Shown: positions 3,247-28,870 of the stretch, piece after piece
How the letters are laid out: every line of letters begins with the position of its first letter
How positions within the stretch are numbered: position 1 is the first letter of the stretch
Origin: a virus
DNA: 36,411 bases
Direction: 5' to 3' (one strand)
Virus record (IMG/VR): IMGVR_UViG_3300029558_000072
Location: 1-36,411 of that record
Notes under the pieces: generated by a model
Seen by the model: the letters and a program-made list of their open reading frames with translations, nothing else
The model's database searches: none
Told to the model about the DNA's origin: nothing
Program-made: the position numbers and the translations under genes

Positions 3247-3881
3247 CCCCCCATCGAGAAAAACGGCTTTACTCCGTTCGTTGCTAATCGGGTGGGTCCA
3301 GGACAAAAGATGGGCCGACGGGCGTGCGCGGCGCCGCGACGCGCAGGCGGCGCGGGCGCGGCAATGATTCTGCCGGGTGCAAGGGCACAGAAGCAGATTT
3401 GGTTACGGAAAGCGTCCAGCTGGGCCAGCAATATCTGGCAGAGCCCTGCGGAGTCTTGAGAAAGCCAGCCCTTCTTTTGGCTGAGAAGGCTACCGCCGGC
3501 CTTTGATCCCCTTAATCTGCTAAACCCGACTTGCAGGGCGAAGGCAAAGCTGATTTTGACTGATGGAAAAACACGATCCGGCTTGTGACCCGGCCCCTGT
3601 GCCGGCTTCACTCTTTCTTCCCTTCCGGTCTCCGTGCCCTACCACGGAGGCCGGGTCATGGGCCGGAGCTGCCGCCCTGCCTGCGCCGAAGGCCTGCGCT
3701 GGATGCGCGGGGTATTGACGTAGACGCGGTGGGGCGGCGCGGTCCGATTCGGACACATACTTCCGGTGTGCACGGCGGCGCTTGCGCCGCAGCGGGTTTG
3801 ATCCTCCTGTCGGCGGCTCTGGCTGCCATGCGAGAGCCGCCGTGTGCGCCGGACGGAAAGAAACGGGAAAGGAGGAGCCTT
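3247..3881. other. 635-bp GC-rich non-coding region, probable cos/packaging-initiation region
   Basis: No convincing ORF: the track ORFs here are Arg/Ala/Gly/Pro-rich. Contains the palindrome CGCGGCGCCGCG (3327..3338), a 12-bp hairpin (3625..3654) and one GTCCGATTCGGAC copy. Lies between HNH and terS. Confidence 0.5.
3742..3754. repeat. GTCCGAWTCGGAC palindrome, copy 1 of 8 (centre T)
   Basis: Exact match read directly. Located in the non-coding cos-type region. Confidence 0.95.
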
Positions 3882-4217
3882 ATGGAGCAGGCAAAGGACT
3901 GGAGAAAAACCAAACAGTACCGGGAACTAAAAAAGTCCATGCTGGATAATCTGGAAGCCAGAGGCCTTTTGGAAAAAGCGTACACCGACAAGGTGGACGA
4001 GTATCTGGACTTCTGGGTGCGGCGGCAGGAATTGCAGACGGATGTGGCTGAGCGCGGTCTTTCCGTGATGGATGATCGGGGCCGCATTACGGAAAACCGC
4101 AGCGTGTCTCTGGAAATTCAGGTGGCCCGGCAAATGCTGGCCGTATGGACGGCACTGGGCTTTAAGGACGCCGCCGCAAAATCGGACGTGCCGGGAGGCA
4201 TGGACGATGAGCTGTAA
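3882..4217 (+). CDS. terS: terminase small subunit (P27-like)
   Basis: ATG 3882 follows GGAGGAG. About 111 aa, helical and charged, directly upstream of and overlapping terL. The longer track ORF from 3585 is a GC-rich artefact. Confidence 0.75.
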   Translation: MEQAKDWRKTKQYRELKKSMLDNLEARGLLEKAYTDKVDEYLDFWVRRQELQTDVAERGLSVMDDRGRITENRSVSLEIQVARQMLAVWTALGFKDAAAKSDVPGGMDDEL

Positions 4218-5877
4218 GCTGCCGCCAGCGGTCACGGCGTATCTGGAGGCAGTGGAAGCAGATAAGCCCCGGGCCTGCCCGGAGCAGCACGCCCTGGCGG
4301 CGCATATCCGGCGGTGCTTCGAGACCGAAGATCTGCGGGTGGATACAGAGCAGCTTCGGCGGTACCTGAGTTTGTCCCGCTATTTCCCGTATAAAGACCT
4401 TTTCCTGTGGGAGCAATTTCTGACGGCGCTTTGGCTGTGCACCTACACCACTGACGGACGGCCCCGGTGGAAGACCCTGTTTTCCATGGTTGGCCGTGGC
4501 GCGGGAAAGGACGGATTTATCGCATTTGTCTCTATGTGCTCCACCTCTCCCTATAACCCGGTGGGCAGCTACAACGTAGACATCTGCGCCAATAACGAGG
4601 AGCAGGCCATGACGCCGGTGCTGGATCTGGTGAACACGCTGGAGCTTCCCAAGAACGAATCAAAGCTGAAACGGTTTTACTACCACACAAAGGAGCTGGT
4701 GCAGGGCCGGAAAAACCGGGGCGTGGTCAAGGGGCGCACCAACAACCCCAAGGGGCGGGACGGTATGCGCTCCGGCATGGTGATCTTTAACGAGGTCCAC
4801 CAGTTTGAAAACTACAACAACATCAAGGTGTTTATCACCGGTCAGGGCAAGGTGGCTCAGCCCCGCGTCGGCATTTTTACATCCAACGGCGAAGTCAATG
4901 ACGGGCCTTTGGACGATTATCTGGCCAGAGGACGGCGGATCTTATTTGAAAACGAGCCGGACAACGGCTTTCTTCCCTTCATCTGCTGTTTGGAGACCCG
5001 GGAGCAGGTACATGACCCGGAAAACTGGTACATGGCAAACCCGTCCCTGTTTTATCTGCCGGATCTGTTTCAGGAGACGGCGGACGAATACCGTGACTGG
5101 GTGGAGCACCCGGAGCAAAACGGCGATTTTCTGACAAAGCGAATGGGCTTGCGGGCTGGATTTCAGGAGATCAGCGTGACGGACTATGAAAAGATCCTCA
5201 AGACCAATAAGCCACAGCCTGATCTGCGTGGCTGGACCTGCACGGTAGGGCTGGACTATGCGGAGCTGAGCGACTGGGCGGCAGTCAACCTCCATTTCCG
5301 GCGAGGCGCAGACCGGTTTGACATTAACCACGCATGGGTTTGCCTGCAATCCAAAACCCTGCCGCGGATCAAGGCTCCGTGGCAGATGTGGGCAAAGGAA
5401 GGACACCTGACGGCGGTGGACGATGTAAGCATCGGCCCTGATCTGATCGCGGCATACATCCAGGACGCTGCCAAATGCTACAACATCAAGGCGCTGGCGA
5501 TGGACCACTACCGGTGGACGCTGGTTTCCGAAAGTATGCGGGCTATCGGCTTTGACGCGGCGGACAAGAACCGGGTGAAGCTGGTGCGGCCATCGGACAT
5601 CATGCAGGTGGAGCCAGTGATTCAGGAATGCTTTGACCGGGAGCTGTTTTACTGGGGCGATCAACCGCACCTTCGCTGGGGCGTAAACAACACCAAGCGG
5701 GTCCGCAGTTCACGGAAGCAGGGGGTCGATACCGGAAACTTTATTTACGCCAAAATTGAAGCGAAAAGCCGTAAGACAGACCCCTTTATGGCACTGGTGG
5801 CCAGTATGACGATTGAACCATTGCTGGGCACCGGCGCTCCGCTGGCGGCCCCGCTAATGGGAGCCATCAGACTATAG
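4207..5877 (+). CDS. terL: terminase large subunit
   Basis: Walker A VGRGAGKDG, 556 aa, overlaps terS by 11 nt. Confidence 0.9.
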   Translation: MSCKLPPAVTAYLEAVEADKPRACPEQHALAAHIRRCFETEDLRVDTEQLRRYLSLSRYFPYKDLFLWEQFLTALWLCTYTTDGRPRWKTLFSMVGRGAGKDGFIAFVSMCSTSPYNPVGSYNVDICANNEEQAMTPVLDLVNTLELPKNESKLKRFYYHTKELVQGRKNRGVVKGRTNNPKGRDGMRSGMVIFNEVHQFENYNNIKVFITGQGKVAQPRVGIFTSNGEVNDGPLDDYLARGRRILFENEPDNGFLPFICCLETREQVHDPENWYMANPSLFYLPDLFQETADEYRDWVEHPEQNGDFLTKRMGLRAGFQEISVTDYEKILKTNKPQPDLRGWTCTVGLDYAELSDWAAVNLHFRRGADRFDINHAWVCLQSKTLPRIKAPWQMWAKEGHLTAVDDVSIGPDLIAAYIQDAAKCYNIKALAMDHYRWTLVSESMRAIGFDAADKNRVKLVRPSDIMQVEPVIQECFDRELFYWGDQPHLRWGVNNTKRVRSSRKQGVDTGNFIYAKIEAKSRKTDPFMALVASMTIEPLLGTGAPLAAPLMGAIRL

Positions 5878-5909: not shown

Positions 5910-7106
5910 ATGGGATTGAGATTTTTTGAATGGCTGGCGGGAAAGGGCGGGCGAACCGCCACAGCGGAGGTCTCCTGTCAGGAGCTATTGGCAGCGGCTG
6001 AAGACTTTCAGGCGCGGCAGCTTTCCTTCTGGACCTGTGTGAACATGGTGGCCAACGCCGTGGGCCGCTGCGAGGTAAAGACTTTCCGGGGACGGGAGGA
6101 GATCCAGGAGCAGGAGTATTACCTGTGGAACGTGGAGCCCAACGTGAACCAGAACAGCTCCGCCTTTTGGCATAAGCTGATCGCCAAGCTGTTTTTGGAC
6201 AATGAAGCGCTGGTGATCTCCAGTAAGCGGCGGGACGGCATGGACGCGGTGATGGTGGCGGACAGCTGGCAGCAGAGCACCTTCTGGCCGATGCGGATGA
6301 ATGAATACATCAACGTGACGGTGGGCGACACCGCCTATGAAAAGACCTTCCGGGAAAACGAGGTTTTGCACTTAAAGCTCCACCACAATGCCATTCGCCC
6401 GGTGGTGGACGGCCTGTGCCAGTCCTACATGCGGCTGGTGGCAGCGGCTATGAGCCGCTATCAGTGGGAGCGTGGGCAGCACTGGAAGGTCCACGTAAAT
6501 CAGATCGCATCCGGCACGCAGGATTTTGAGCAAAATTTTGCCAAGATCATCGAGCAGCAGATCAAACCGTTTTTTGACAGCGGCGCAGCGGTGCTCCCGG
6601 AGTTTGACGGCTATGACTACCAGCAGGTCAATAAATCTGGCGATGGCAAGGTGGGCGACAGCCGGGACGTGCGGAACCTGATCGAGGACATTTTCGATTT
6701 TACCGCCCGGGGATTTCTGATCCCCGCTGTACTGGTAAACGGCACCGTTCAGGGCACAGCGGACGCCAACAGCCGCTTTCTGACCCAGTGTATTGACCCT
6801 ATCTGCGACCAGCTCCAGGAGGAGATCACCCGGAAGCGGTACGGCTTTGACGGTTGGAAGCAGGGCAACTTTGTCCGGGTGGATTCCTCCGCGATCCTCC
6901 ACTTTGACATGTTTGCCAACGCTGCCAACGTGGAAAAGCTGGTGGGCAGCGGCGCCTTCTCGGTCAACGATGTGCTGCGAGCGGCCAACCAGGCCACCAT
7001 CAACGAGCCGTGGGCCGACGAGCACTTTTTGACACTGAACATCGCGCGGATCCAAGAAGCCGCGCAGCAGATGAACGCAGAGAAAGGAGACAGCGGGAAT
7101 GAATGA
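5910..7106 (+). CDS. portal protein (HK97-type)
   Basis: 398 aa, positioned after terL and before the protease, with typical portal sequence character. Confidence 0.85.
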   Translation: MGLRFFEWLAGKGGRTATAEVSCQELLAAAEDFQARQLSFWTCVNMVANAVGRCEVKTFRGREEIQEQEYYLWNVEPNVNQNSSAFWHKLIAKLFLDNEALVISSKRRDGMDAVMVADSWQQSTFWPMRMNEYINVTVGDTAYEKTFRENEVLHLKLHHNAIRPVVDGLCQSYMRLVAAAMSRYQWERGQHWKVHVNQIASGTQDFEQNFAKIIEQQIKPFFDSGAAVLPEFDGYDYQQVNKSGDGKVGDSRDVRNLIEDIFDFTARGFLIPAVLVNGTVQGTADANSRFLTQCIDPICDQLQEEITRKRYGFDGWKQGNFVRVDSSAILHFDMFANAANVEKLVGSGAFSVNDVLRAANQATINEPWADEHFLTLNIARIQEAAQQMNAEKGDSGNE

Positions 7107-13884: not shown

Positions 13885-14254
13885 GCAGTTGATTTTGAAC
13901 GGGATCTTGCTGCCGGAGAGCAGCAAGGACCGGTTTTCCTGCTGGGAGGAGGATCTATCCGTGCAGGTGGACATGATCTCCGGCCGCCGGGTGGTGGAAA
14001 CCCGGGGGAAAATCTGGAAGGCGTCCTACTCCTTCGACTACATGGGCAATGAGAAACTGCGGCAGGTGCTGGCGGTGCTGCGGAGCGGCGGCCCGTTCCT
14101 CGCCTCCGTGCTGCCGGATGACCGGGACGAGATGGTTTCCAGCTATTTCCTGCTGGATTCCATCACCCAGCCCACGTTCGCCTTCTCCAAGGGCGGCGTG
14201 GGACTGTGGCACAATCTGGCGTTCACCCTCCGGGAGGTGGAGCCGCATGATTAA
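13877..14254 (+). CDS. distal tail protein-like
   Basis: ATG 13877 overlaps the tape-measure end. 125 aa, by synteny. Confidence 0.65.
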   Translation: MTKQLILNGILLPESSKDRFSCWEEDLSVQVDMISGRRVVETRGKIWKASYSFDYMGNEKLRQVLAVLRSGGPFLASVLPDDRDEMVSSYFLLDSITQPTFAFSKGGVGLWHNLAFTLREVEPHD

Positions 14255-16475
14255 GACGTCTCCCGCCTATCAGGCGGCCATCGTGGGCAGTCCCCGGCGG
14301 ATCGAGCTGCTGACGGTGGTGGATATCTCCGACCCGGACATGGCCTACGGCGAGGTAACCTCCAGCGGGCTGGCCCCGTGGAGCAAGCCCGAGGAGCTGC
14401 ATGACAAGAGCTACGACACCCCGGCCCGCTACGCCACGCTGGAGCGGGGGCGGTGGCTGCTGGACGGCTCCTTTGACATCTTCCCGGACGACTTCAAGGT
14501 GGAGGCCCCGATGGCAGTGGCCACGGAGGCCATCAGCGGAGACGACGGCACCTTTGCAGAGCCGGTATGGGTGCAGCAGAGTTTCTCGGATGTGGATGTG
14601 CTTCAGGCGTGCAGCGTGTTTTTCTCCACGGATCCGCTGGACGGCGTCCCGGCTGATTTCACGGTTGAGATCATCACGGCGGGGCAGGTATTCCACACGG
14701 AGCGGTTCACCGGCAACACGGCCACGGAGGTAGCCGTCACCGGCTTTACGGTGCAGACGCCGGATGCCATCAAGGTCACGGTGAGCAAGTGGAGCCTGCC
14801 GGGGCGGCGGATGCGTCTGGTGGAGATCCTCCCCGGAACCGTGGAGCGCTGGGCGCCCCGGATGCTGGCCAGCTTCTCCGTGGTGCAGCAGGGGGACTTC
14901 TCCTGTCTGGCGCTGCCCTACGGCAGCATGAGCCTCGCTATGGACAACGCCGACCGGCGCTTTGAGCCGCGAAGCAAAAACGGATTGTTTCAATCCATTG
15001 AGGAGCGGCAGGGCATTGACGCCTTTATCGGCGTCCGCACGGACACCGGCGCGGTGGTGCGATGCAAGGTGGGCCGGTTTTATCAGTCCGGGGACGGCTG
15101 GAAAACCGGCGACAACAGTCTGACCATGCAGTGGTCCCTCGTCGATATTATCGGGCTGCTGACGGACCGCACCTTTCTGCCCCCTTCTCCGCTGCCCACG
15201 ACGCTGGGCGGCTGGATCGGGGCACTGGCGGCCCAGCTGGGCGTGAATTTCAAGGACCGCTGGCACGTTGACCCGGCCTACACGGCTCTGCCGGTGACGG
15301 TGCGCACGGCAACGGACATTCAGGGGAAAAAGTGCGGGGACATCCTTCGGTGGGTGTGTCAGGCAACGGGCACATGGCCCCGGGCGGACGCCTCCACCGG
15401 AGATCTGACCGCTGAGCCTCTCTGGCGGGAGGGCAATAAGATCACGCTGGACAACCTGACGGCCTATCCCGTGATGAAGGCCAATGACCAGTTGGCCAGC
15501 CTGATTTTCAAGCTGGCGGACGGAAACAATACGGAGTATGTGGTTTCCGGCAACTCTACCAGCAGCGAGAAAACCGTGACCATCCAGAACCCCTTCCTGC
15601 ACACCACGGCGCAGGCGCTGGCAGCGGCGCGGCTGATCCTTTCGTGCTACGGCGGCAACGTGATCGAGACCACCGGGCGGGGCGACCCGTCCAGCGAGAT
15701 CGGGGACGTGGACACCATCTGGCTGGATGAGAGCCAAGCCACCACGGCGCGGCGGATGATGCAGAGCTTCCAAATGCAGAACGGCGTGCTGCAAGGCTGC
15801 CAGAGCAAGCTGCTACAGGCAGACGGCTCCTATCTCTATTCCCGCTCCGTGGTGCTGACGGAGAGCGGGACGTGGACGGCCCCTGCCGGAGTCACCCACC
15901 TGCGGGTGACCGTGGGGCAAGGCGGTCAGGGCGGCGGCTACGGCACCGACGGCTATGTGTACGGCTCCGGCTGGATGCCGGGGCAGGGCGTTGCTGCCGG
16001 ATACGGCGAGGACGGCGAGGACGGCATCGGCGGAAAAGTCTGGTACGATTCCCTTACCATCAACGCGGGACAGACCTTCGCCGTGACCATCGGCAAGGGC
16101 GGCGCGCCAGCCACCCGGAAGGGCGCGGCGGGGGCTGAGGGCGAGGAGAGCACCTTCGGGGTTTACTCCTCCGCCAACGGCAAGCGCTACGCCAACGGCT
16201 ACACCGACATCAACAGCGGCGACAGCTACGCCCGGACCGGCGTGGCAAAGCCCCTGCCGGGAACTGGCGACGGCGCTGCCGGCGGCAAGGGCGGCGATCC
16301 GGGGCAGGGCTACTGGAAAAAATACACCGTCAGGCCGAACCCTGCGAAGCCGGATGTGGTGAACACCAGCTATAAATTTATTATTACGAAACAGCCAGGG
16401 CCGGGGCATTCGGGGAAACCCGGCGGTGACGGCTTTGTGCTGATTGCATGGGACAAAGCGGAGGAGACGGCATGA
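14247..16475 (+). CDS. tail-tip/baseplate hub-like protein with C-terminal glycine-rich domain
   Basis: ATG 14247. 742 aa. The C-terminal ~200 aa read TAPAGVTHLRVTVGQGGQGGGYG...GGDGFVLIAW. Confidence 0.75.
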   Translation: MIKTSPAYQAAIVGSPRRIELLTVVDISDPDMAYGEVTSSGLAPWSKPEELHDKSYDTPARYATLERGRWLLDGSFDIFPDDFKVEAPMAVATEAISGDDGTFAEPVWVQQSFSDVDVLQACSVFFSTDPLDGVPADFTVEIITAGQVFHTERFTGNTATEVAVTGFTVQTPDAIKVTVSKWSLPGRRMRLVEILPGTVERWAPRMLASFSVVQQGDFSCLALPYGSMSLAMDNADRRFEPRSKNGLFQSIEERQGIDAFIGVRTDTGAVVRCKVGRFYQSGDGWKTGDNSLTMQWSLVDIIGLLTDRTFLPPSPLPTTLGGWIGALAAQLGVNFKDRWHVDPAYTALPVTVRTATDIQGKKCGDILRWVCQATGTWPRADASTGDLTAEPLWREGNKITLDNLTAYPVMKANDQLASLIFKLADGNNTEYVVSGNSTSSEKTVTIQNPFLHTTAQALAAARLILSCYGGNVIETTGRGDPSSEIGDVDTIWLDESQATTARRMMQSFQMQNGVLQGCQSKLLQADGSYLYSRSVVLTESGTWTAPAGVTHLRVTVGQGGQGGGYGTDGYVYGSGWMPGQGVAAGYGEDGEDGIGGKVWYDSLTINAGQTFAVTIGKGGAPATRKGAAGAEGEESTFGVYSSANGKRYANGYTDINSGDSYARTGVAKPLPGTGDGAAGGKGGDPGQGYWKKYTVRPNPAKPDVVNTSYKFIITKQPGPGHSGKPGGDGFVLIAWDKAEETA

Positions 16476-17587
16476 GTTTTGATTATGCAAGCCTTATCAC
16501 AGACCGGGCGCGGTCCGATTCGGACACCCTCAAGGCGCTGCTGAAAAAGCCCCTGACCGACTGGACGGAGGCGGAGCGGACGGCCTTTAATACCGCTATG
16601 CTCAAGGGCAGCTACGACTACACCGACCTCAACCGGGTGGACGCGTGCATGGAGGATCTGGTGGCTCGGCTGGGCAGGATAGGCTACAGCGTGCCGGGGT
16701 ATCAGCGGGTGAAAATTGAGCGGGCGGTGACGCCCAGTTCCCGTCTGCCGGAGGGGTATGCGGAAGTGCAGTATATCCAGAGCACGGGAACGCAGTATGT
16801 CGATACCGGGTTCAAGCCAAACCAAGATTCGCGTGTACTCATAAAACTATCTACGTCAGAAACCGGTAGCCATACAGTGTTTGGGGCAGATCTTGGTTGG
16901 ACTGATGATGGCTTTGCGCTTGGCGTTGGATTCACCCATTACGGAAAAGAAACCGGAACGATTTCCGGGTTGAATAATGGATCTCCGCATGAGGTCAGTT
17001 TTAACAAAAACATTATCTCTATGGACGGATCACCTGTTCTGACTATGGGGGGTTCAACATTTTCCGTCCCACACAATCTGGCACTTTTTGCAAATAACCG
17101 CGCCGGGGGGATTCAGGAAAAAACAACGATGGTGCTCTATTATTGCCGGATTTATGACGGAAATACCATTATTCGGGACTATATCCCCTGCAAAAACGCT
17201 GCCGGGGCGGTGGGGCTGTACGATCTGATCGGGCAGAAGTTTTACGGCAACGCCGGAACCGGCAGCTTCACGGCGGGGCCGGCGGTGACGGGGGACACCC
17301 CGGAGGAACCGACGGACACGCTGGACCCGTACACGTGGTATGAGAGCGATGTGCCGACGGTGTCCCTGTTGGCCCGCTATCGGGACAACGTGGCGGCGGT
17401 GCGGGGGGTGCTCCGGCTGCCGGAGGGGACGCCGGAAGTCCCGGAAACGCTGCGAAGGATGACGCAGACGGAGGCCAACAGTATTGAGGCGGTGCTGCTG
17501 GCCGTTGACCTGATTTTGAACCATATCCCTGCTGCCGTGCGCCACTGCGGCGTGACGGTGTGCGGGGGGAAAGGAGTGAGAGCATGA
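16472..17587 (+). CDS. tail fibre / receptor-binding protein candidate
   Basis: ATGA overlap. LPEGYAEVQYIQSTGTQYVDTGF motif. The central ~400 nt are visibly lower in GC. Confidence 0.65.
   Translation: MSFDYASLITDRARSDSDTLKALLKKPLTDWTEAERTAFNTAMLKGSYDYTDLNRVDACMEDLVARLGRIGYSVPGYQRVKIERAVTPSSRLPEGYAEVQYIQSTGTQYVDTGFKPNQDSRVLIKLSTSETGSHTVFGADLGWTDDGFALGVGFTHYGKETGTISGLNNGSPHEVSFNKNIISMDGSPVLTMGGSTFSVPHNLALFANNRAGGIQEKTTMVLYYCRIYDGNTIIRDYIPCKNAAGAVGLYDLIGQKFYGNAGTGSFTAGPAVTGDTPEEPTDTLDPYTWYESDVPTVSLLARYRDNVAAVRGVLRLPEGTPEVPETLRRMTQTEANSIEAVLLAVDLILNHIPAAVRHCGVTVCGGKGVRA
16513..16525. repeat. GTCCGAWTCGGAC palindrome, copy 4 of 8 (centre T)
   Basis: Exact match 41 nt into the fibre gene, read as S-D-S-D. 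Confidence 0.95.
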
Positions 17588-18786
17588 GAGATCGAACGCC
17601 TACGAAGGCCCTTGAAAACGGCGCGCTGCGCTACGGCGTGTACGCAGAGGACGGAAGCCTGCTGCGCTATGAGTATCTGGCGCTGGAGGATGACCCCGCA
17701 GACCCCGGCACGGAGCTGAGAAAGTCCACGCTGCTTCAGGATTCCACGGAGGTTTCCCTGTTCGGCGGCGCGGCGGACCGGACGGTGGACGAAGCCTTTG
17801 CCGGGATCGCCGGACAGCTGAAGCTCATCAAGTCCGATGTGGCGGCCATCACCCTGACGGTGCAGGATGCCAACGGCAAGCCCATTCCGGAGGTGCTGGT
17901 ACGGGGCATTTTAAGCGAGAGCGGACAGGCGGTGTACACCAACGCCAACGGCGTGGTGACCGGCTACATTGGTGAGGGTGCTCAGGTCATTAAGGTCAGC
18001 GGCTATGCAGATCTTGAGGATTACAGCGAGACCGTGACCGTGGTCAAGGGCACGACCATCAACAAGACGATCAAGCTGACAACCCGGAATTTTCTGAAAA
18101 TCACGGCCAGCAAAAGCGTTGCATTTTCCGGGAACGTTAAAACTGTTGATGTGAATGCTGTTGGCGGTGGCGGTGGCGGTGGATATGGCGCTGGCACCTA
18201 TCGAGGATCAGGCGGCGGCGGTGGCGGTGGTGGTGGGCACAGTGTAATTCAGACTGGCATCGCCGTTGAAATTAACACACCATATCTCTGTATTGTTGGT
18301 GCTGGAGGGGAGAGCAAAAGAGCCGAAAAAGCAACCGATGGAGGAGAATCATCATTCCTCAACGTTCGAGCATCAGGCGGTGGCGGTGGCCAATACGCAT
18401 ACGGAACACCATCTGGCGGCGCAGGATCCGGAAATGGAAATGGTGGTGCTGGCAATGGCGGAAGCGATGACGCATTTGATGGGACTGTCGGCACCGAACA
18501 GGGATTTTTATCTTTTTCCGAATCCGGATATGTCGGCGGCGGTGGCGGTGGTGGCAGCGGCTCCGATAGTGATGGAAATACTGGTTCTCCAGGAACCGGA
18601 AAAGGATACGGTGGAAACGGAGGTGGCCGCTCTGGAGACGCTACTAAAAATGAAGGCGAGCCGGGGGTCAACGGATACGGTGGTGGCGGCGGTGGTGGAG
18701 GTTCTTATTTAAGCAATTACAGTGCCGGAGGCAAGGGCGGCTCCGGCTGCATCGCCATCCGGATGCACCTGAAATCTGCGGCGTAA
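17584..18786 (+). CDS. second glycine-rich-domain tail fibre protein
   Basis: ATGA overlap. The C-terminal half carries poly-Gly runs and ends GGKGGSGCIAIRM, paralogous to the end of 14247..16475. Confidence 0.7.
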   Translation: MRDRTPTKALENGALRYGVYAEDGSLLRYEYLALEDDPADPGTELRKSTLLQDSTEVSLFGGAADRTVDEAFAGIAGQLKLIKSDVAAITLTVQDANGKPIPEVLVRGILSESGQAVYTNANGVVTGYIGEGAQVIKVSGYADLEDYSETVTVVKGTTINKTIKLTTRNFLKITASKSVAFSGNVKTVDVNAVGGGGGGGYGAGTYRGSGGGGGGGGGHSVIQTGIAVEINTPYLCIVGAGGESKRAEKATDGGESSFLNVRASGGGGGQYAYGTPSGGAGSGNGNGGAGNGGSDDAFDGTVGTEQGFLSFSESGYVGGGGGGGSGSDSDGNTGSPGTGKGYGGNGGGRSGDATKNEGEPGVNGYGGGGGGGGSYLSNYSAGGKGGSGCIAIRMHLKSAA

Positions 18787-18798
18787 AGGAGGGAGCCT

Positions 18799-19080
18799 AT
18801 GGAATACTGCATTGTAGAGGACGGCGTGATCGTCAACATGATCGTGGCCGAGGCGGACTTTGCGGAGGAGATCGGGGCGCTGCCCTCCTACAAGGGCGCG
18901 GCCATCGGCGGGGCGTACACACCGCCTCCCCCGGAGCCGGAGCCACCTACCACAGACGAGCGGGTGGCGAAGCTGGAGGCGGAAAACAAGCTGCTGCGGG
19001 AACAGGTGAGCGCGCAGGCGGATCAGGCGGAGTTCTACGAGGAGTGCATCGCCGAGATGGCGGCGATCGTCTATGCGTGA
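18799..19080 (+). CDS. hypothetical protein (Pro-rich linker plus coiled coil)
   Basis: 93-aa ORF with AAGGAGGGAG upstream. Confidence 0.6.
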   Translation: MEYCIVEDGVIVNMIVAEADFAEEIGALPSYKGAAIGGAYTPPPPEPEPPTTDERVAKLEAENKLLREQVSAQADQAEFYEECIAEMAAIVYA

Positions 19081-19138
19081 GTTTTGGGCGGGAAAAGCCC
19101 TGAACCTATATTTTTTACTATCGAAAGGAGCAAGAGAC

Positions 19139-19300
19139 ATGATGGCAATGTTGTTTGCGCAGAGAGTGATTCTGGAAAAAACCGAGTTTGAGAAGGTGCC
19201 CCCTAAGCTGAAGCAGCAGGTGGCGGACATTCTCATCAACGAGTGCGGCCTGCCGGAGCTGGTGCCTGCGGAGTTTGGGGGAACCGCAAAGGCAGAGTAA
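19139..19300 (+). CDS. small tail-module protein (hypothetical)
   Basis: ATG 19139 follows AAAGGAG. 53 aa. Confidence 0.55.
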   Translation: MMAMLFAQRVILEKTEFEKVPPKLKQQVADILINECGLPELVPAEFGGTAKAE

Positions 19301-19307
19301 CAAAAGA

Positions 19308-19324
19308 GCCGCCCAGCGGGCGGC
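19308..19324 (-). terminator. hairpin gccgccc-agc-gggcggc; on the - strand it is followed by TCTTTTG
   Basis: 7-bp GC stem read directly. A T-run is present only for leftward transcripts. Confidence 0.5.
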
Positions 19325-19332
19325 GTAGAAAA

Positions 19333-19361
19333 TTGACAAAGCAAGGCGAATCGTGTATGAT
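19333..19361 (+). promoter_or_regulatory. near-consensus sigma-70-type promoter TTGACA-N17-TATGAT
   Basis: Read directly (TTGACA 19333-19338, TATGAT 19356-19361), in a non-coding gap after the tail genes. Confidence 0.7.
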
Positions 19362-19414
19362 GGGGTTCGCCAGTAAGAGCGGTACGGTTGTTTCCCCGTA
19401 AAGGGGGTGACCGC

Positions 19415-19492
19415 ATGAGCACAGCAGAAACCATTGCGTTACTTATGCTTGTGATTGCGGCTATCAAATTAGGCGTTGACCTAAAGAAATAA
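19415..19492 (+). CDS. 25-aa hydrophobic peptide, type I toxin / holin-like toxin candidate
   Basis: MSTAETIALLMLVIAAIKLGVDLKK: a TM helix plus a Lys-rich tail. Its SD AGGGGGTGA can pair with the upstream CCCC. Confidence 0.55.
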   Translation: MSTAETIALLMLVIAAIKLGVDLKK

Positions 19493-19585
19493 CCGCCACC
19501 TAAATCGGCAGCGGCTTTTCTACGGATTCTAAATCTGTTGGGGAACGACCTGCACCGACCAAAGTGAGCCGTCCTTACTGGCCCT

Positions 19586-19615
19586 ATTATATACATGCCA
19601 ACGCCGCTTTGTCAA
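19586..19615 (-). promoter_or_regulatory. - strand promoter TTGACA-N18-TATAAT, convergent with the peptide gene
   Basis: The reverse complement of 19586..19615 reads TTGACAaagcggcgttggcatgtaTATAAT. Confidence 0.6.
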
Positions 19616-19636
19616 GGATGACAAGGCGGCTTTTTT
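19603..19636 (+). terminator. rho-independent terminator
   Basis: Stem gccgctttgtca / tgacaaggcggc (one G-U pair), loop agga, then TTTTTT. Confidence 0.8.
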
Positions 19637-19687
19637 GATTGGAAAAACATATAGGCGCCTTAAAACTGCAACTTTAAGGAGTGTGTT

Positions 19688-19912
19688 ATGACGGAGACGA
19701 TAATCTGCGCCCTCATCACAGGGGGGCTGACGCTGATGGGCGTGCTCATCGCCAACGGCAAACAGCAGGCGATCACGGACACGAAACTGGACGAGTTGAC
19801 CCGCGAGGTGCGGGAGCACAACAGCTTCGCCCAGCGGGTGCCGGTGATCGAGGAACAGATCAAGGTAATCAATCACCGGATCGAGGATCTGGAGCATATC
19901 AGTGAACGCTGA
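19688..19912 (+). CDS. N-terminal TM plus coiled-coil protein, lysis-cassette associated (holin-like)
   Basis: TAAGGAG RBS. One TM (IICALITGGLTLMGVLIA) followed by a charged helix. Confidence 0.6.
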   Translation: MTETIICALITGGLTLMGVLIANGKQQAITDTKLDELTREVREHNSFAQRVPVIEEQIKVINHRIEDLEHISER

Positions 19913-19924
19913 AAGGAGAACGCT

Positions 19925-20116
19925 ATGGAAAACATCAAGAAGCGGCTGGGCAATCTGCTGGCGGTAAAAAGCCTTGTGACCATCACCCTGACGGTGGTGT
20001 TCGCGGTGCTGGCCCTGCGGGAGAGCATTAGCGGCAGCGAGTTCCTGACCATCTTCACGGTGGTCATCGGGTTCTATTTTGGAACCCAGCGGGTAGCCGA
20101 GGACAAGAACGGTTGA
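19925..20116 (+). CDS. holin (two TM segments)
   Basis: 63 aa with two hydrophobic segments and a charged C-terminus, upstream of the lysins. Confidence 0.7.
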   Translation: MENIKKRLGNLLAVKSLVTITLTVVFAVLALRESISGSEFLTIFTVVIGFYFGTQRVAEDKNG

Positions 20117-20487: not shown

Positions 20488-21160
20488 TACGTTTGACTGC
20501 GCCCGTGCGCAGATCTACCACAACACCGGAAAGCTGACCCCGGCGCAGATCAAGGCCAAGACCGGCTGCACCCACATCATAAACGGCTATCTGTTCAACG
20601 GCAAGTTTCAGCCGGTGGGCTGGACGGTGATCGACGGTAAGATCATCAGCCGGGACAAATACCAGGACTGGGGCGTGTCCATTGGCAGTGACGGCAAGCC
20701 GCAGATGCTGACGGACCGGGGCGGATCGTTTTTGTCCGGCGTGCCCATCCTCAAGGGCGGGTCCAAGCTCTACCGGGGCCTGACCGCCGACGTGGCCCGG
20801 CCTGCTGCCCGGACGGCGGTGGGCTGGATGCCCAACGGCAAGGTATGCCTGTGGTGCGACAAGGCCAGCCTGACCCGTGAGCAGCTCCAGAACAAACTGC
20901 TGGGGCTGGGCGTGGTAGACGCCCTCATGCTGGACGGCGGCGGCTCCACCCAGGGCATTTTCCCCGGCGGGAAGGTGATCAGCAGCCGGAAGGTGCCCAC
21001 GCTGCTGCTGTTTTGGGAGCGGTCGGCAAAGCCGGAAGATCAAGCCCTCGTATGGGGGAAGTCTCACGGCCTGCTGACGGACACCAACGCCGGGGAGACC
21101 GTGACACGGGCCGACATGGTTCAAGCGCTGTATCAGATCTGGGGGGATAACCATGGTTGA
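20480..21160 (+). CDS. phosphodiester glycosidase (NAGPA/DUF2233-like) domain protein, lysis enzyme candidate
   Basis: ARTAVGW...ALMLDGGGSTQ motif pattern, located in the lysis cassette. Confidence 0.6.
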   Translation: MVDTFDCARAQIYHNTGKLTPAQIKAKTGCTHIINGYLFNGKFQPVGWTVIDGKIISRDKYQDWGVSIGSDGKPQMLTDRGGSFLSGVPILKGGSKLYRGLTADVARPAARTAVGWMPNGKVCLWCDKASLTREQLQNKLLGLGVVDALMLDGGGSTQGIFPGGKVISSRKVPTLLLFWERSAKPEDQALVWGKSHGLLTDTNAGETVTRADMVQALYQIWGDNHG

Positions 21161-21548
21161 GATCCACGCTTACAGCAAAGCCGCCTCCGGGGGCAAGCAG
21201 CTTTCCGCACATTTCAAGGTGCGGGAGTTTGCGTGTGGAGACGGCAGTGACGCTGTTTTGGTGGCGCCCCGGCTGGTGATGGTGCTGGAGACCATCCGCA
21301 CCCACTTCGACGCTCCGGTGGTCATCCACAGCGGGTACCGCACACCGCAGTACAATGCCAAGGTGGGCGGGGTGGCCCATAGTCAGCACTGCTATGGCAT
21401 GGCTGCGGATATCTCCGTCAAGGGCCAGGTTCCGGCAGGGGTGGCAGCGTTTGCCCGGTCGCTGATGCCCGATTGGGGCGGCGTGGGGGTTTATGACAGC
21501 TTTTGTCATATCGACGTGAGAGAGACCAAGGCTGACTGGAAAGGATAA
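21153..21548 (+). CDS. peptidase M15A-family cell-wall hydrolase (endolysin)
   Basis: F..REF.C, SGYRTPQYN...HSQHCYGMAADI and HIDVR zinc-ligand pattern. Confidence 0.8.
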   Translation: MVEIHAYSKAASGGKQLSAHFKVREFACGDGSDAVLVAPRLVMVLETIRTHFDAPVVIHSGYRTPQYNAKVGGVAHSQHCYGMAADISVKGQVPAGVAAFARSLMPDWGGVGVYDSFCHIDVRETKADWKG

Positions 21549-23205: not shown

Positions 23206-23254
23206 GCAACTTTTTCCACATCGGAAACAGTTCAGGCCCCTTCGGCCGGGTAAT

Positions 23255-23285
23255 GGGCGGGGCCGGTGCCCCGCCCTTCAATTTT
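23255..23285 (+). terminator. hairpin gggcggggc-cggt-gccccgccc followed by TTCAATTTT
   Basis: 9-bp perfect GC stem read directly. The T-tract is interrupted. Confidence 0.55.
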
Positions 23286-23300
23286 GAAAGGAGAAAAATT

Positions 23301-23702
23301 ATGAGTTGTAAGTCTGCTTTATACGCTGCTATGCAGACCCCCACGGCGGTGGCTGTTGGCGGCGTCATCCCTCTGGGCGGCCTGATCCGGCGGTACGGCT
23401 GCGACATTGCCCTCAACGGCAACGCGGTCAACCTCTCCGGCGTCGGCTACTATGACGTGGACGCCTCCATCACCGCTACCCTCACGGCGGCCGGAGCCGT
23501 CACCGCCACACTCTACAAGGACGGCGTGGCAGTCCCCGGCGCCACCGCCACCGAGACCGGCGCGGCCGACGGCACGGTCAACCTGGATCTCACGGCGCTG
23601 GTGCGTCAGCCCTGCTGCGCTGCCGGCGCGGCTCTGACTTTGGTGCTGACCGGCGTGGAGGCCACCGTTGACAACGTGGCCCTGCGGGTTCAGCGGATCT
23701 GA
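23301..23702 (+). CDS. BclA-C-terminal/TNF-like (C1q-like jelly-roll) domain protein candidate
   Basis: GGAGAAAAATT RBS. The pattern IALNGNAVNLSGVGYYDV...ATLYKDGVAVPGA...LTLVLTG...VALRV is recognised by eye only. Confidence 0.5.
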   Translation: MSCKSALYAAMQTPTAVAVGGVIPLGGLIRRYGCDIALNGNAVNLSGVGYYDVDASITATLTAAGAVTATLYKDGVAVPGATATETGAADGTVNLDLTALVRQPCCAAGAALTLVLTGVEATVDNVALRVQRI

Positions 23703-24569: not shown

Positions 24570-25724
24570 TCAAATTTTATCGGTAATTTGGCGCAGATCG
24601 TCCAGATCGACGTCCTGATAGTAGCGCAGCTGCTCCTCGCTGGCGTGGCCAATCAGGGACAGCTTGTCCTTGTCGGATCCAACGACACGCTTCATCAGCG
24701 TGGCAAAGGTGTGGCGGCAGCTGTGGGGCGTGTAGGTGTGTTTCTGGTGGCCGTTTACGTCAAAAGTGGGGTTCGGCAACTCCAGCGCGTCCAGCAGATC
24801 GTAAAACATTTGGCGGTAGGCTTTGAGATCCAGCGCTTTGCCGTCGGCGGCACAGAACACCTGCCCGGTGGCCCTCTCCCCTATCCGCTGATCGATGATG
24901 CTCTGGATCTTGGGCGATATGGTGACGGTGCGGCCTTTGCCTGCGTCCGTTTTCGCGCCGCCGGTAAAGCAGCGCTGCGCGCGGTCATAATCGGACACGT
25001 CCAGTGCCAGAAACTCAGAGGGGCGGAAGCCGAGGTAGCACTGCGCCAGCACATAGTCCGCGCCAGAGACGCTGCCGACGGCTTTCCGGATGGTTTCCAA
25101 ATAGTCCATAGGCAGGCCGACGCCTCCGGCTCCCTCGTCACCGGTAACGGTAAGGTATTCTGACAGGTTCAGCTTCTCCGGGAAATAGCCACGAGGGATG
25201 CCGTACTTATAGATCAGGCCCGCCGTGGTTTTCATATTTCGCCGGGTGGCCTTCCCCCGGGGGCACTCGTCGAGGCAGTCTTGCAGATCGTCCACGTCGA
25301 TATCGCCGCAACGCTCAAAGTAAAGGGGCGCGAAGTATTTCATGGCGGCTTTGTAGTTGCCCAGCGTGTCCGGCCCGGCCCGGTGGGTGGGGAGCCAGAG
25401 ATCATACAGCTCTTTCCACGTTGTCCGCTGCTTTTTATCAATTTTTGCTGCGGACCGCTTACTGGGATCCAGCAGCGGCAGCGCCTCCACCGCGTCCTTT
25501 TTTTTGGCAAAGGTCCGGGACACCGTGCGCCGCCGACTTTTTCCGGTCTCGTCCAGATACATCTGGACGCGGATTGCCTTATATTTCCCGTTTGGCAGGC
25601 GGTAGACACTCCCCTGCCCGTTGCCCCTGCTCTTGGTGTTTCTGGCGGCTGAGGCCTGCTTCGCCCCGCAGCGGAGACAGTACGGTCCGTCCGGGACTTC
25701 CTGCTTGCACTTTTTGCAGATCAT
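24570..25724 (-). CDS. int: tyrosine integrase with N-terminal zinc ribbon
   Basis: CKKC...CLRCG N-terminus. HSCRHTFAT and ...LIGHAS...LRYYQD catalytic-region motifs. Adjacent to the attP-like region. Confidence 0.9.
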   Translation of the reverse strand: MICKKCKQEVPDGPYCLRCGAKQASAARNTKSRGNGQGSVYRLPNGKYKAIRVQMYLDETGKSRRRTVSRTFAKKKDAVEALPLLDPSKRSAAKIDKKQRTTWKELYDLWLPTHRAGPDTLGNYKAAMKYFAPLYFERCGDIDVDDLQDCLDECPRGKATRRNMKTTAGLIYKYGIPRGYFPEKLNLSEYLTVTGDEGAGGVGLPMDYLETIRKAVGSVSGADYVLAQCYLGFRPSEFLALDVSDYDRAQRCFTGGAKTDAGKGRTVTISPKIQSIIDQRIGERATGQVFCAADGKALDLKAYRQMFYDLLDALELPNPTFDVNGHQKHTYTPHSCRHTFATLMKRVVGSDKDKLSLIGHASEEQLRYYQDVDLDDLRQITDKI

Positions 25725-27700: not shown

Positions 27701-27761
27701 GTACCGAAAGTAACAAAATAGTCCCGAAAGTGTTGACAGTACCGAAAGTACCGAGTATACT
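27701..27761. promoter_or_regulatory. immunity switch: operators GTACCGAAAGTA (27701, 27739), variant GTCCCGAAAGTG (27721), and rightward promoter TTGACA (27733)-N17-TATACT (27756)
   Basis: Read directly. One operator fills the promoter spacer. Confidence 0.7.
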
Positions 27762-27837
27762 ATAGCCATAGAGGACATAGCCCCGAGGACAATATACCAC
27801 ACCGGGGCAACGCCGTCAAGGCGGGAAAGGAGCAATC

Positions 27838-28041
27838 ATGATCGTTAACAGAGTCAAGGAGCTGCGGACGGCTGCCGGGATGACCCAGAAGGCGCTGGCG
27901 GATCAGCTGGGCGTCACCGTCCCCACGGTGAGCAAGTGGGAGCTGGGCCAGCGGACCCCGGAGCTGGAGAGAGTTTTCCGCATGACGCTGATCTTTGGCG
28001 TCCCCATTGAGGAGATCGTCCAGCGGACGGAAAGCGCGTGA
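27838..28041 (+). CDS. Cro-like XRE-family HTH protein
   Basis: 67 aa. MTQKALADQLGVTVPTVSKWELG. AAAGGAG RBS. Confidence 0.85.
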   Translation: MIVNRVKELRTAAGMTQKALADQLGVTVPTVSKWELGQRTPELERVFRMTLIFGVPIEEIVQRTESA

Positions 28042-28057
28042 GAAGGGAGCGAGAACC

Positions 28058-28258
28058 ATGACATTACAGGACATTGAGCAGATCCCCAAGGAGTTCCTGA
28101 CGGCGGCGCAGGTGGCGCCGATTTTAGGCTCCGACCCGCAGACCATCCGGATGCAGGCGCGGCTTCGGCCGGATCTCCTTCCCTTCCCTGCCGTCTGCCT
28201 GGGCAGTCGGGTCAAGATTCCCAAGGAGGCGTTCCTCCGGGTCATGCGGGGCCTATAA
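28058..28258 (+). CDS. excisionase-like small HTH DNA-binding protein
   Basis: ATG 28058. LTAAQVAPILGSDPQTIR...RVKIPKEAFLRVM pattern. Confidence 0.55.
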   Translation: MTLQDIEQIPKEFLTAAQVAPILGSDPQTIRMQARLRPDLLPFPAVCLGSRVKIPKEAFLRVMRGL

Positions 28259-28288: not shown

Positions 28289-28870
28289 ATGGAGCGAAAA
28301 TACCCAAATCTCTATCAAAGGGCAAGGCTGAGCACCGGATTGACGCAGGAACGTGCAGCGGAGCTGCTTGGGTTGTCCCCGGAAAGTCTGAAACAGTACG
28401 AGGGCGGCAAGACGGTGCCCAAGGACGAGACGGTGGCCAAGATGGTGGAGGTGTACAGCTGCCCATGGCTGGCATTGGAGCACGCGCAGGCCACGGACAC
28501 GCTGGGCGTAATGCCGGAGGTGACGCCAAGGCCTCTGCCCATGGCAAGCATCGCCCTGCGGAACCGTCTGCAAGACGCGACGGGCCGGTTGGACGCCCTG
28601 CTCCGGATCGCCGAGGACGGCGTGATCGACGAGGCTGAGCGGCCGGAGTTCGATTCCATCGTGGTGGAGCTGCGGGAGACTATGGCGGCCATCTATCAAG
28701 TGATCTACTCAGGCGCAAAAAAAGAACGCCCCGAGGCGGCAACCTCAGAGCGTTCAGGGGAAAAAGTGTGTGGTTTAGGGAAAACCACTGTTGGATGTAT
28801 CAATTATAGCACAAGGTCCACCACACACGCAAGCCCTAATTTTCGCCGGGAAGGGGGCGTATCCCTGTGA
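28289..28870 (+). CDS. XRE-family HTH regulator (3' extent uncertain)
   Basis: GAAAGGAGG RBS. HTH LTQERAAELLGLSPESLKQYEGG. The last ~45 aa are low-confidence. Confidence 0.65.
   Translation: MERKYPNLYQRARLSTGLTQERAAELLGLSPESLKQYEGGKTVPKDETVAKMVEVYSCPWLALEHAQATDTLGVMPEVTPRPLPMASIALRNRLQDATGRLDALLRIAEDGVIDEAERPEFDSIVVELRETMAAIYQVIYSGAKKERPEAATSERSGEKVCGLGKTTVGCINYSTRSTTHASPNFRREGGVSL

Follow-up and report, generated by a model that had tools for sequence, protein, structure and literature searches.

We found that a short region (positions 19300..19636) of the viral record IMGVR_UViG_3300029558_000072, a stretch of 36,411 nucleotides analysed at its full length and called the window below, probably constitutes an autonomous type I toxin–antitoxin (TA) cassette that a temperate phage of gut Oscillospiraceae carries as an accessory gene ("moron"). 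A first-pass annotation, made from the letters of the DNA, had proposed at this locus the architecture of a type I toxin with a cis-antisense RNA. This proposal is supported by the comparative analysis, since the convergent promoters, the open reading frame (ORF) and a hairpin around the Shine-Dalgarno sequence (SD) are conserved in 32 diverged copies, the - strand is under structural selection, and the layout is that of TxpA/RatA and BsrG/SR4. The elements of the cassette are the following.

19300..19324, - strand: distal terminator-like hairpin (stem 19308..19324, T-run 19300..19307), left edge of the cassette
19333..19361, + strand: toxin-mRNA promoter TTGACA-N17-TATGAT, 11/12 consensus positions, predicted start ~19368
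19368..19636, + strand: predicted toxin mRNA, ~269 nt, minimum free energy (MFE) -99.8 kcal/mol, z = -4.9 against shuffles
19369..19383, + strand: 5' strand (GCCAGTAAGAGCGGT) of P1, a 5'-3' long-distance closing stem; pairs with 19568..19582
19386..19393, + strand: 5' strand of P2, GGTTGTTT; partner GAACGACC, alternative partner GAAATAACC at the stop codon
19394..19407, + strand: SD-sequestering hairpin, with anti-SD CCCC (19394..19397), loop GTAAA and SD GGGGG (19403..19407)
19415..19492, + strand: putative type I toxin ORF, 25 aa, MSTAETIALLMLVIAAIKLGVDLKK
19483..19516, - strand: antisense intrinsic terminator, hairpin 19516..19491 and then TTATTTCTT, directly over the stop codon
19483..19579, - strand: predicted antisense (antitoxin) RNA, 96-97 nt, three stem-loops
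19543..19550, + strand: 3' strand of P2, GAACGACC; on the - strand part of antisense stem-loop 1
19568..19582, + strand: 3' strand of P1 (GCCGTCCTTACTGGC), adjoining the antisense -10 box; the predicted antisense RNA starts within it
19586..19615, - strand: antisense-RNA promoter TTGACA-N18-TATAAT, 12/12, predicted start at the A of 19579
19603..19636, + strand: toxin-mRNA intrinsic terminator (hairpin 19603..19630, then T6), whose stem includes the -35 box of the antisense promoter

The family to which the cassette belongs was gathered by pattern scans on conserved 3' motifs in IMG/VR and in the GTDB species-representative genomes. These scans yielded ~100 viral loci and, in the species-representative genomes, 34 loci, 26 of them with a peptide-ORF copy; false positives (L223 and L224 in the viral scan; L267, L271, L280, L285, L290 and L297 in the genome scan) were removed by requiring the peptide ORF. 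A scan with the palindromic closing-stem pattern recovered close relatives together with four chance matches (L181, L192, L194 and L195), and it was replaced by the 3'-module patterns. From more than 60 distinct copies, filtering and clustering gave 32 non-redundant copies, which were aligned and to which all counts out of 32 refer. The hosts belong to the Oscillospiraceae and other Clostridia, including Agathobaculum, Butyricicoccus, Dysosmobacter, Ruminococcus and Pseudoscilispira, and some contigs hold two to four copies. A chromosomal copy is present in Agathobaculum butyriciproducens DSM 100391 (contig NZ_QEKJ01000001.1; L266 3976-4217, - strand). Copies that are 96-98% identical were found on ~26 IMG/VR contigs, the transcribed core being less variable than the flanks. 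At the other end of the range, the divergent copy L124 encodes a very different peptide, MVTYADMFTYSLVLIGLASLIFTVTRHKK, while promoters, RNA elements and stop-codon region are all retained. Several partial matches comprised the 3' half (the antisense-RNA gene) only (L279 549..1296; L294 4898..5570; L276 4968..5485; L268 2527..2645; L283 484..606); these units lie in tandem alongside complete modules and may represent either orphan antitoxin genes or copies of the toxin gene that have decayed.

The 25-aa hydrophobic, Lys-tailed peptide ORF proposed in the first-pass annotation (19415..19492) is present, and the SD lies 7 nt 5' of its ATG. An ORF encoding a hydrophobic peptide of 25-30 aa with a KK-stop end was found in 32/32 copies, with an SD at a distance of 5-11 nt, and all of the peptides followed the pattern M-[S/T/V]-x-x-[E/D], hydrophobic core, [K/R]K-stop tail, which was held despite strong nucleotide divergence. 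Among copies that were up to 35% different, the differences were distributed over the three codon positions as 262:150:412, and 256 of the 573 differing codons in the 32 copies were synonymous; in the near-identical set, the two variable ORF sites were a synonymous Ile change and a change of Val to Ile/Leu. Because the ORF is retained in every copy with substitutions biased to the third position, the comparison indicates that it is coding. As in type I systems, the locus therefore appears to hold a small hydrophobic peptide ORF with its own ribosome-binding site and under coding selection.

The + strand promoter at 19333..19361, the - strand promoter at 19615..19586, the + strand terminator in 19603..19636 and the hairpin at 19308..19324 with a T-run on the - strand only had all been named in the first-pass annotation, and each of them was recovered, the promoters at 11/12 and 12/12, respectively. 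On both strands of the whole 36.4-kb window there are 3 promoter-like sites of at least 11/12, and the cassette promoters are 2 of them, compared to 0.115 sites per window expected by chance from block shuffles; the convergent promoter pair therefore exceeds chance. At matching relative positions, a + strand promoter of at least 9/12 was found in 30/32 copies and a - strand promoter of 10-12/12 in 32/32, even in those without a + strand terminator around the -35 box, and the antisense -10 box was nearly invariant across the family alignment. The + strand terminator is kept in the closest subfamilies and was detected in 9/32 copies by a strict scan. A - strand terminator 5' of the + strand promoter, comparable to the distal hairpin, was present in 15/32 copies; in the window, this hairpin probably serves as an insulator or as a back-up stop should antisense transcription read through. 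The low-GC members (L197, ~6400..6470; L232; L237) have no + strand terminator, and in them the -35 box of the antisense promoter overlaps with the SD and start codon (ATG) of a downstream ORF (MAKTKAEIQRDYEKR...), so that the toxin mRNA may extend into the neighbouring gene.

The predicted toxin mRNA carries conserved structures. The first-pass annotation had suggested that the SD can be sequestered by an upstream CCCC, and in the modelled fold the CCCC at 19394..19397 can indeed pair with the SD. In 32/32 copies, the SD was predicted to lie in the stem of a local hairpin; the stem varies in sequence from copy to copy, the loop is often a GNRA-type tetraloop, and covariation was found at the three scored pairs. 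The conserved 5'-3' closing stem P1 is a feature that the first-pass annotation had missed. It was kept in 31/32 copies though its sequence changes wholesale, with compensatory changes such that 14 of its 15 pairs changed on both sides across the family, and cognate duplexes had a mean energy of -27.5 kcal/mol, compared to -18.4 kcal/mol for non-cognate ones. In P2, GGUUGUyC pairs with GrACGACC, with U-A to C-G compensation in 7 sequences. When the structure named here was scored, 86.5% of cells paired, compared to 37-52% with a slid partner, and 24/44 pairs were changed on both sides. On four of five measures, 0/500 shuffles reached the observed values; on the fifth, the count of further pair types, the structure did not exceed the shuffles.

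The sequence GGTTGTTT (19386..19393) has two conserved, mutually exclusive partners, GAAATAACC (19484..19492) and GAACGACC (19543..19550), and its last three bases can lengthen the SD hairpin via a conserved GAC 3' of the SD. The single-sequence MFE fold pairs GGTTGT mainly with GAAATAACC; this candidate was ranked below GAACGACC, as only GAACGACC compensates in the GGTTGTCC clade. Both pairings may form as alternative structures, which is suggestive of a possible RNA switch. In T1TAdb, type I toxin mRNAs are recognised by an antisense RNA that overlaps at the 3' end, a hairpin of SD and anti-SD, long-distance interactions between the 5' and 3' ends, and terminator stem-loops at the 3' end (PMC8594479). 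Cis elements of this type against premature translation were found here in nearly every copy, namely the SD hairpin in 32/32 and P1 in 31/32.

The ends of the antisense RNA were predicted with its start 7 nt from the -10 box (A, 19579) and its end in the U-tract that follows the hairpin 19516..19491. This terminator-like hairpin with its TTATTTCTT had been overlooked in the first-pass annotation, which had the antisense transcript run across the peptide gene to the hairpin at 19308..19324. The convergent - strand promoter part of that claim held, as the promoter is kept in 32/32 copies, whereas the distal end gave way to the terminator over the stop codon. Since the proximal terminator is found in all copies and the distal one in 15/32, the antisense RNA most likely runs from ~19579 to 19483; the long transcript to 19308..19324 was not retained as the predicted antisense RNA and is possible as read-through. 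An equivalent antisense RNA of 91-101 nt was predicted in all 32 copies. That of the window has a predicted fold of -33.1 kcal/mol with a well-defined MFE structure, which accounts for 12% of the ensemble, and it would be complementary to the 3' untranslated region (UTR) of the toxin mRNA and to the last three codons of the ORF. A cis-encoded antisense gene, as type I systems have, is thus seen at the sequence level only.

The two strands of this segment do not behave alike. In 32/32 copies, the fold of the - strand segment is the more stable one, with a mean of -38.0 kcal/mol vs -27.3 kcal/mol for the + strand, and the antisense helices contain G.U pairs fixed on the - strand that would be A.C mismatches on the + strand. 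Such an asymmetry is hard to explain unless a - strand transcript is made and its fold matters, and it points to strand-specific structural selection on that transcript. In addition, the U-tract TTATTTCTT, when read on the opposite strand, gives the Lys-Lys-stop codons AAGAAATAA. The invariance of AAGAAATAA at the DNA level can be attributed to its encoding the antisense terminator U-tract, and the constant KK tail of the peptides is perhaps also due to this U-tract.

Combining these predictions with what is documented for characterised systems, we infer the transcripts, the toxicity of the peptide, an RNase III step and the biological role by analogy. A host-type promoter would give rise to the ~269-nt mRNA for a 25-aa hydrophobic, Lys-tailed peptide. 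In this mRNA, the anti-SD/SD hairpin would bury the ribosome-binding site and render the mRNA poorly translatable, and the 15-bp 5'-3' stem together with the second helix (GGUUGUUU/GAACGACC) would lock it in a compact fold. The convergent consensus promoter in the 3' UTR would give rise to the ~96-nt antisense RNA that ends at the Lys-Lys-stop U-tract, and this fully complementary RNA would pair with the 3' region of the mRNA, leading to RNase III-type cleavage and decay as for RatA, SR4 and SR5. In the window copy, the antisense RNA may also tighten the sequestration of the SD, as the predicted cost of opening the SD rose from 3.6 to 8.3 kcal/mol when the antisense target was blocked. Upon prophage loss, or with less antisense RNA, translation of the stable mRNA would yield the membrane peptide, to the detriment of the cell. 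The resulting role would be prophage maintenance or abortive infection, both of which are plausible here.

Of the known systems, the TxpA/BsrG group comes closest to the locus, which is a new and divergent representative of an established class, the type I TA systems. The Gram-positive 3'-overlap group includes txpA/RatA, bsrG/SR4, bsrE/SR5, bsrH, yonT/SR6 and EF3263, and its members share convergent genes, with an antisense RNA that covers the 3' UTR and the ORF end, toxin mRNAs of 255-294 nt and a frequent prophage location (PMC6562991, PMC8594479, PMC2887945). The predicted RNA of the window has this layout, being convergent, on the 3' side and overlapping both the 3' UTR and the ORF end as in TxpA/RatA and BsrG/SR4. 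With txpA/RatA of the Bacillus subtilis skin element, the locus shares convergent genes overlapping at their 3' ends, a toxin mRNA of ~270 nt, a prophage-like carrier element and a hydrophobic peptide with an MST-x-E-type N-terminus. It differs in that the window peptide has 25 aa and TxpA 59 aa, the antisense RNA has ~96 nt rather than 222 nt, there is no nucleotide or Rfam similarity, and the host is one of the Oscillospiraceae (Clostridia), not Bacilli; moreover, the dependence on RNase III that has been shown for RatA is here presumed by analogy. The txpA, bsrE, bsrH and bsrG mRNAs are 255-294 nt in length (PMC6562991, Table 1), which agrees with the ~269 nt predicted for the toxin mRNA here, and a role of TxpA in prophage maintenance has been suggested for the skin element (PMC2887945).

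The bsrG/SR4 (SPbeta prophage), bsrE/SR5 and bsrH/as-bsrH systems of B. subtilis encode toxins of 29-38 aa, and BsrG ends, like the window peptide, in Lys residues (QKKK). Their antisense RNAs likewise overlap at the 3' end and consist of several stem-loops including the terminator, but are 163-200 nt in length, compared to ~96 nt here. In the bsrG mRNA, the SD lies in a short helix that is extended by binding of the SR4 antitoxin (PMC6562991), and the window copy is predicted to be SR4-like in this respect, with a rising SD opening cost, although this was not family-wide (16/32). The closest antitoxin size is that of Enterococcus faecalis EF3263, which has a divergent TxpA-family peptide and a ~110-nt RNA over the 3' UTR (PMC2887945); unlike the window locus, it is chromosomal and linked to mazEF (PMC6563280). 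Clostridioides difficile prophage modules (e.g. CD0977.1/RCd11 of phiCD630-1) share the clostridial prophage location, and their toxins, including CD0956.2 and CD0977.1, resemble the window peptide by general features only, namely a hydrophobic N-terminus and a Lys-rich C-terminus (PMC6563280). A role of such modules in prophage maintenance has been shown experimentally (PMC7699646, PMC6563280). The C. difficile toxins are longer (34-59 aa, with phage homologues of 30-56 aa), and their promoters include SigB-dependent ones.

With the Gram-negative systems hok/Sok and aapA1/IsoA1, the locus shares a full-length mRNA that would be locked by a 5'-3' interaction and SD sequestration (PMC8594479). 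In those systems, however, the antisense RNA falls inside the bounds of the mRNA and targets its 5' or translation-initiation region, and their peptides are not related to those of the present family. For hok and aapA1, activation of the toxin mRNA by 3' processing is documented, and at the window locus such processing is a possibility. As for Fst/RNAII (par), in which the antisense RNA pairs via direct repeats at the 5' end in addition to the shared terminator, Pfam and NCBIfam gave no Fst match and the locus, on reading, showed no direct-repeat arrangement.

Rfam 15 covariance models gave no match in the locus at gathering thresholds, and at E<=10 over 19200..19750 gave two chance-level matches, both outside the core of the module; a tRNA/tmRNA scan found none. 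Among GenBank phages, neither blastn with the locus nor tblastn with two family peptides gave a relevant match. The first-pass annotation had called for comparison with the Fst, TxpA and holin-like toxin families, and the outcome was divided. One family peptide, from Agathobaculum (MVTYSDLFQFGLLIVGVIGLCFMYRKK), passed the threshold of PF16935 (Hol_Tox; 25.2 bits vs 23.3), being the only one of 19 peptides to do so, and two further peptides of the 19 matched Hol_Tox weakly; the window peptide matched neither this family nor Fst. B. subtilis TxpA carries PF16935, and proteins annotated as "holin-like toxins" were assigned to the TxpA family by Fozo et al. 2010 (PMC2887945). At the peptide level, membership in PF16935 is therefore marginal for the family and absent for the window copy.

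Several points weigh against a type I TA cassette and have to be set beside the evidence above. The transcripts are predicted, and both toxicity and its neutralisation are putative. Neither the window peptide nor a 34-aa extension from a TTG start matched Pfam or NCBIfam, the peptide not even at E<=10 with Hol_Tox and Fst included, and alignment of the peptide family by hhalign with TxpA and with BsrG was insignificant, at a probability of 3-4%. The window peptide is also the shortest of the family and has a Lys and an Asp within its hydrophobic stretch, so it could be attenuated. Blocking of the antisense target raised the SD opening cost in only 16/32 copies, which is inconsistent across the family, and BsrG/SR4-like tightening of the SD is accordingly not claimed as a family mechanism. 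Finally, the motifs GGTTGT, AAATAACCGCC and ACGACC served in the search patterns, so that their invariance is partly circular. The same applies to AAGAAATAACCGCC, which is invariant across the collected family but belonged to the search pattern; GGTTGT, where it lay outside the viral scan pattern, was still present in 10/10 family copies of the cluster alignment of that scan.

The window itself is a temperate siphovirus-like phage or prophage, as it encodes an integrase, a helix-turn-helix (HTH) regulator, a terminase and an endolysin, and the annotated neighbours place the locus between tail and lysis genes, as had been noted earlier.

4072..5877: terminase (large terminase gene)
14049..18786: tail-fibre-like proteins
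19139..19300: CD1375-like small protein
19688..20116: two small membrane proteins
21153..21548: endolysin-type peptidase
24570..25724, - strand: integrase
28289..28870: HTH regulator

When compared with relatives whose flanks are >85% identical, homology breaks sharply at 19284 and 19657, and in these relatives the slot of the cassette is filled by unrelated GC-rich sequence. Phages retrieved through two neighbouring genes carried the cassette in 12/80 and 15/79 cases. Because of these sharp breaks and its presence in only this minority of related phages, the cassette is an accessory insert in a variable slot. The slot (19285..19657) extends from the CD1375-like gene to the first membrane-protein gene and is a variable cassette site; in relatives (L014 2504..2970; L020 2752..2983) it holds GC-rich, hairpin-rich repeats, e.g. 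GGCCCTCTCCCTTTGGAAACCCGCTCCCGGAGACGGG, and in L014 a possible small - strand ORF. A 295-aa - strand ORF that spans the locus (18709..19596) was dismissed as spurious, lying antisense to three + strand genes in GC-rich DNA.

Elsewhere in the window, the third promoter-like site of at least 11/12 (27733..27761, +) faces a 10/12 site (27819..27791, -) at the 5' end of a - strand ORF (27760..28245), ~470 nt 5' of the HTH gene at 28289..28870; this pair (27733..27819) is probably the lysogeny switch region. A DUF3800-VIII RNA (Rfam RF03075) was found at 3671..3738 (+) as a full-length match (54.7 bits, E=1e-7), just 5' of the large terminase gene and overlapping the start of the listed ORF 3585..4217. 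The 408-aa tail-fibre-like protein at 17560..18786 (+; phrog_863) has very long glycine runs, e.g. GGGGGGGGGG, and the protein at 23253..23702 has a weak, sub-threshold BclA_C-like match.

The position of the cassette directly 5' of two small membrane-protein genes and an endolysin raises the question of whether the peptide is instead a lysis accessory (a holin, an antiholin or a lysis-timing factor), with the antisense RNA delaying its expression until late infection. In line with this, 3/19 family peptides weakly matched the holin-annotated PHROG phrog_3488 (E=0.0016), Hol_Tox genes of streptococcal prophages adjoin lysis or paratox regions, and one Hol-Tox protein was reported to complement a lysis-defective phage (PMC11357604). 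The cassette, however, has sigma-70-type promoters of its own and terminators on both sides, is absent from most phages with >85% identical flanks, and is not restricted to phage lysis modules. Family copies also lie between housekeeping genes, near a GH3 hydrolase in A. butyriciproducens and between a starch synthase and an SLH protein in a metagenome-assembled genome of the Oscillospiraceae, and some stand in tandem arrays without lysis genes nearby. These contexts, together with the units that hold only the antisense half, argue for an autonomous module rather than a component of a lysis cassette. The "holin-like accessory" alternative of the first-pass annotation is disfavoured by the non-phage chromosomal sites and the tandem arrays, and we regard a lysis function as unlikely.

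A slightly smaller chance is given to the view that only the RNAs are functional, as a + strand small RNA (sRNA) or leader and/or a trans-acting - strand sRNA, and that the small ORF is not translated. The strong conserved RNA structure on both strands would fit this view, as would an SD that is buried in every predicted state at a cost of ~7 kcal/mol to open, the 3'-half-only units in tandem with full modules, and the + strand transcripts that may read into a downstream gene in some members. Against it stand the ORF in 32/32 copies with its SD at 5-11 nt, the third-position bias and the share of synonymous codons, the peptide pattern (M-S/T/V-x-x-E/D, hydrophobic core, KK tail) that is kept despite nucleotide divergence, and the one member above the Pfam Hol_Tox threshold. 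As for mere coincidence, in which promoter- and terminator-like motifs happen to surround a spurious short ORF in an intergenic spacer, consensus scans are indeed weak when taken alone, and at a loose 9/12 the 2-kb region held 2 sites where 1.0 was expected. Yet two facing sites of at least 11/12 compare with 0.115 expected per 36 kb, and across 32 diverged copies, taken from various genera and genomic contexts, every element is conserved, with covariation; the comparative data thereby effectively refute chance, which we consider negligible.

Beyond the type I TA cassette itself, a wider reading is possible, though we hold it only tentatively and think it rather less likely than not to be right in full. 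According to this reading, the family would be a previously undescribed one that is widespread among Oscillospiraceae of the gut and the phages of these bacteria, and some of its bases would serve two purposes, one on each strand. The Lys-Lys-stop codons would double as the U-tract of the antitoxin terminator, the ACGACC box would close an mRNA helix and form another stem in the antitoxin, and the antitoxin would start inside the 5'-3' clamp, so that its 5' end mimics the 5' end of the mRNA. The tandem units holding only the 3' half would then be orphan antitoxins, possibly acting as anti-addiction or cross-immunity elements between competing prophages.

To our knowledge, nearly all of the characterised type I systems come from Proteobacteria, Bacilli and C. 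difficile. A large in silico survey of 2010 found almost no type I systems in other Clostridia (PMC6563280). The present family, which is common among gut Oscillospiraceae and the phages that infect them, is defined by sequence in abundant butyrate producers of the human gut (Agathobaculum, Butyricicoccus and Dysosmobacter) and in their temperate phages, and was unrecognised by the libraries queried, with nothing in Rfam, 1/19 peptides in Pfam, and almost all members missed by Pfam and NCBIfam. The locus leaves the type I TA concept itself unchanged; what it adds is a case in which one stretch of DNA would meet coding, terminator and two different RNA-structure constraints together. The clear RNA architecture and a culturable host make the family testable, and it could matter for prophage stability and for phage–phage competition in the gut.

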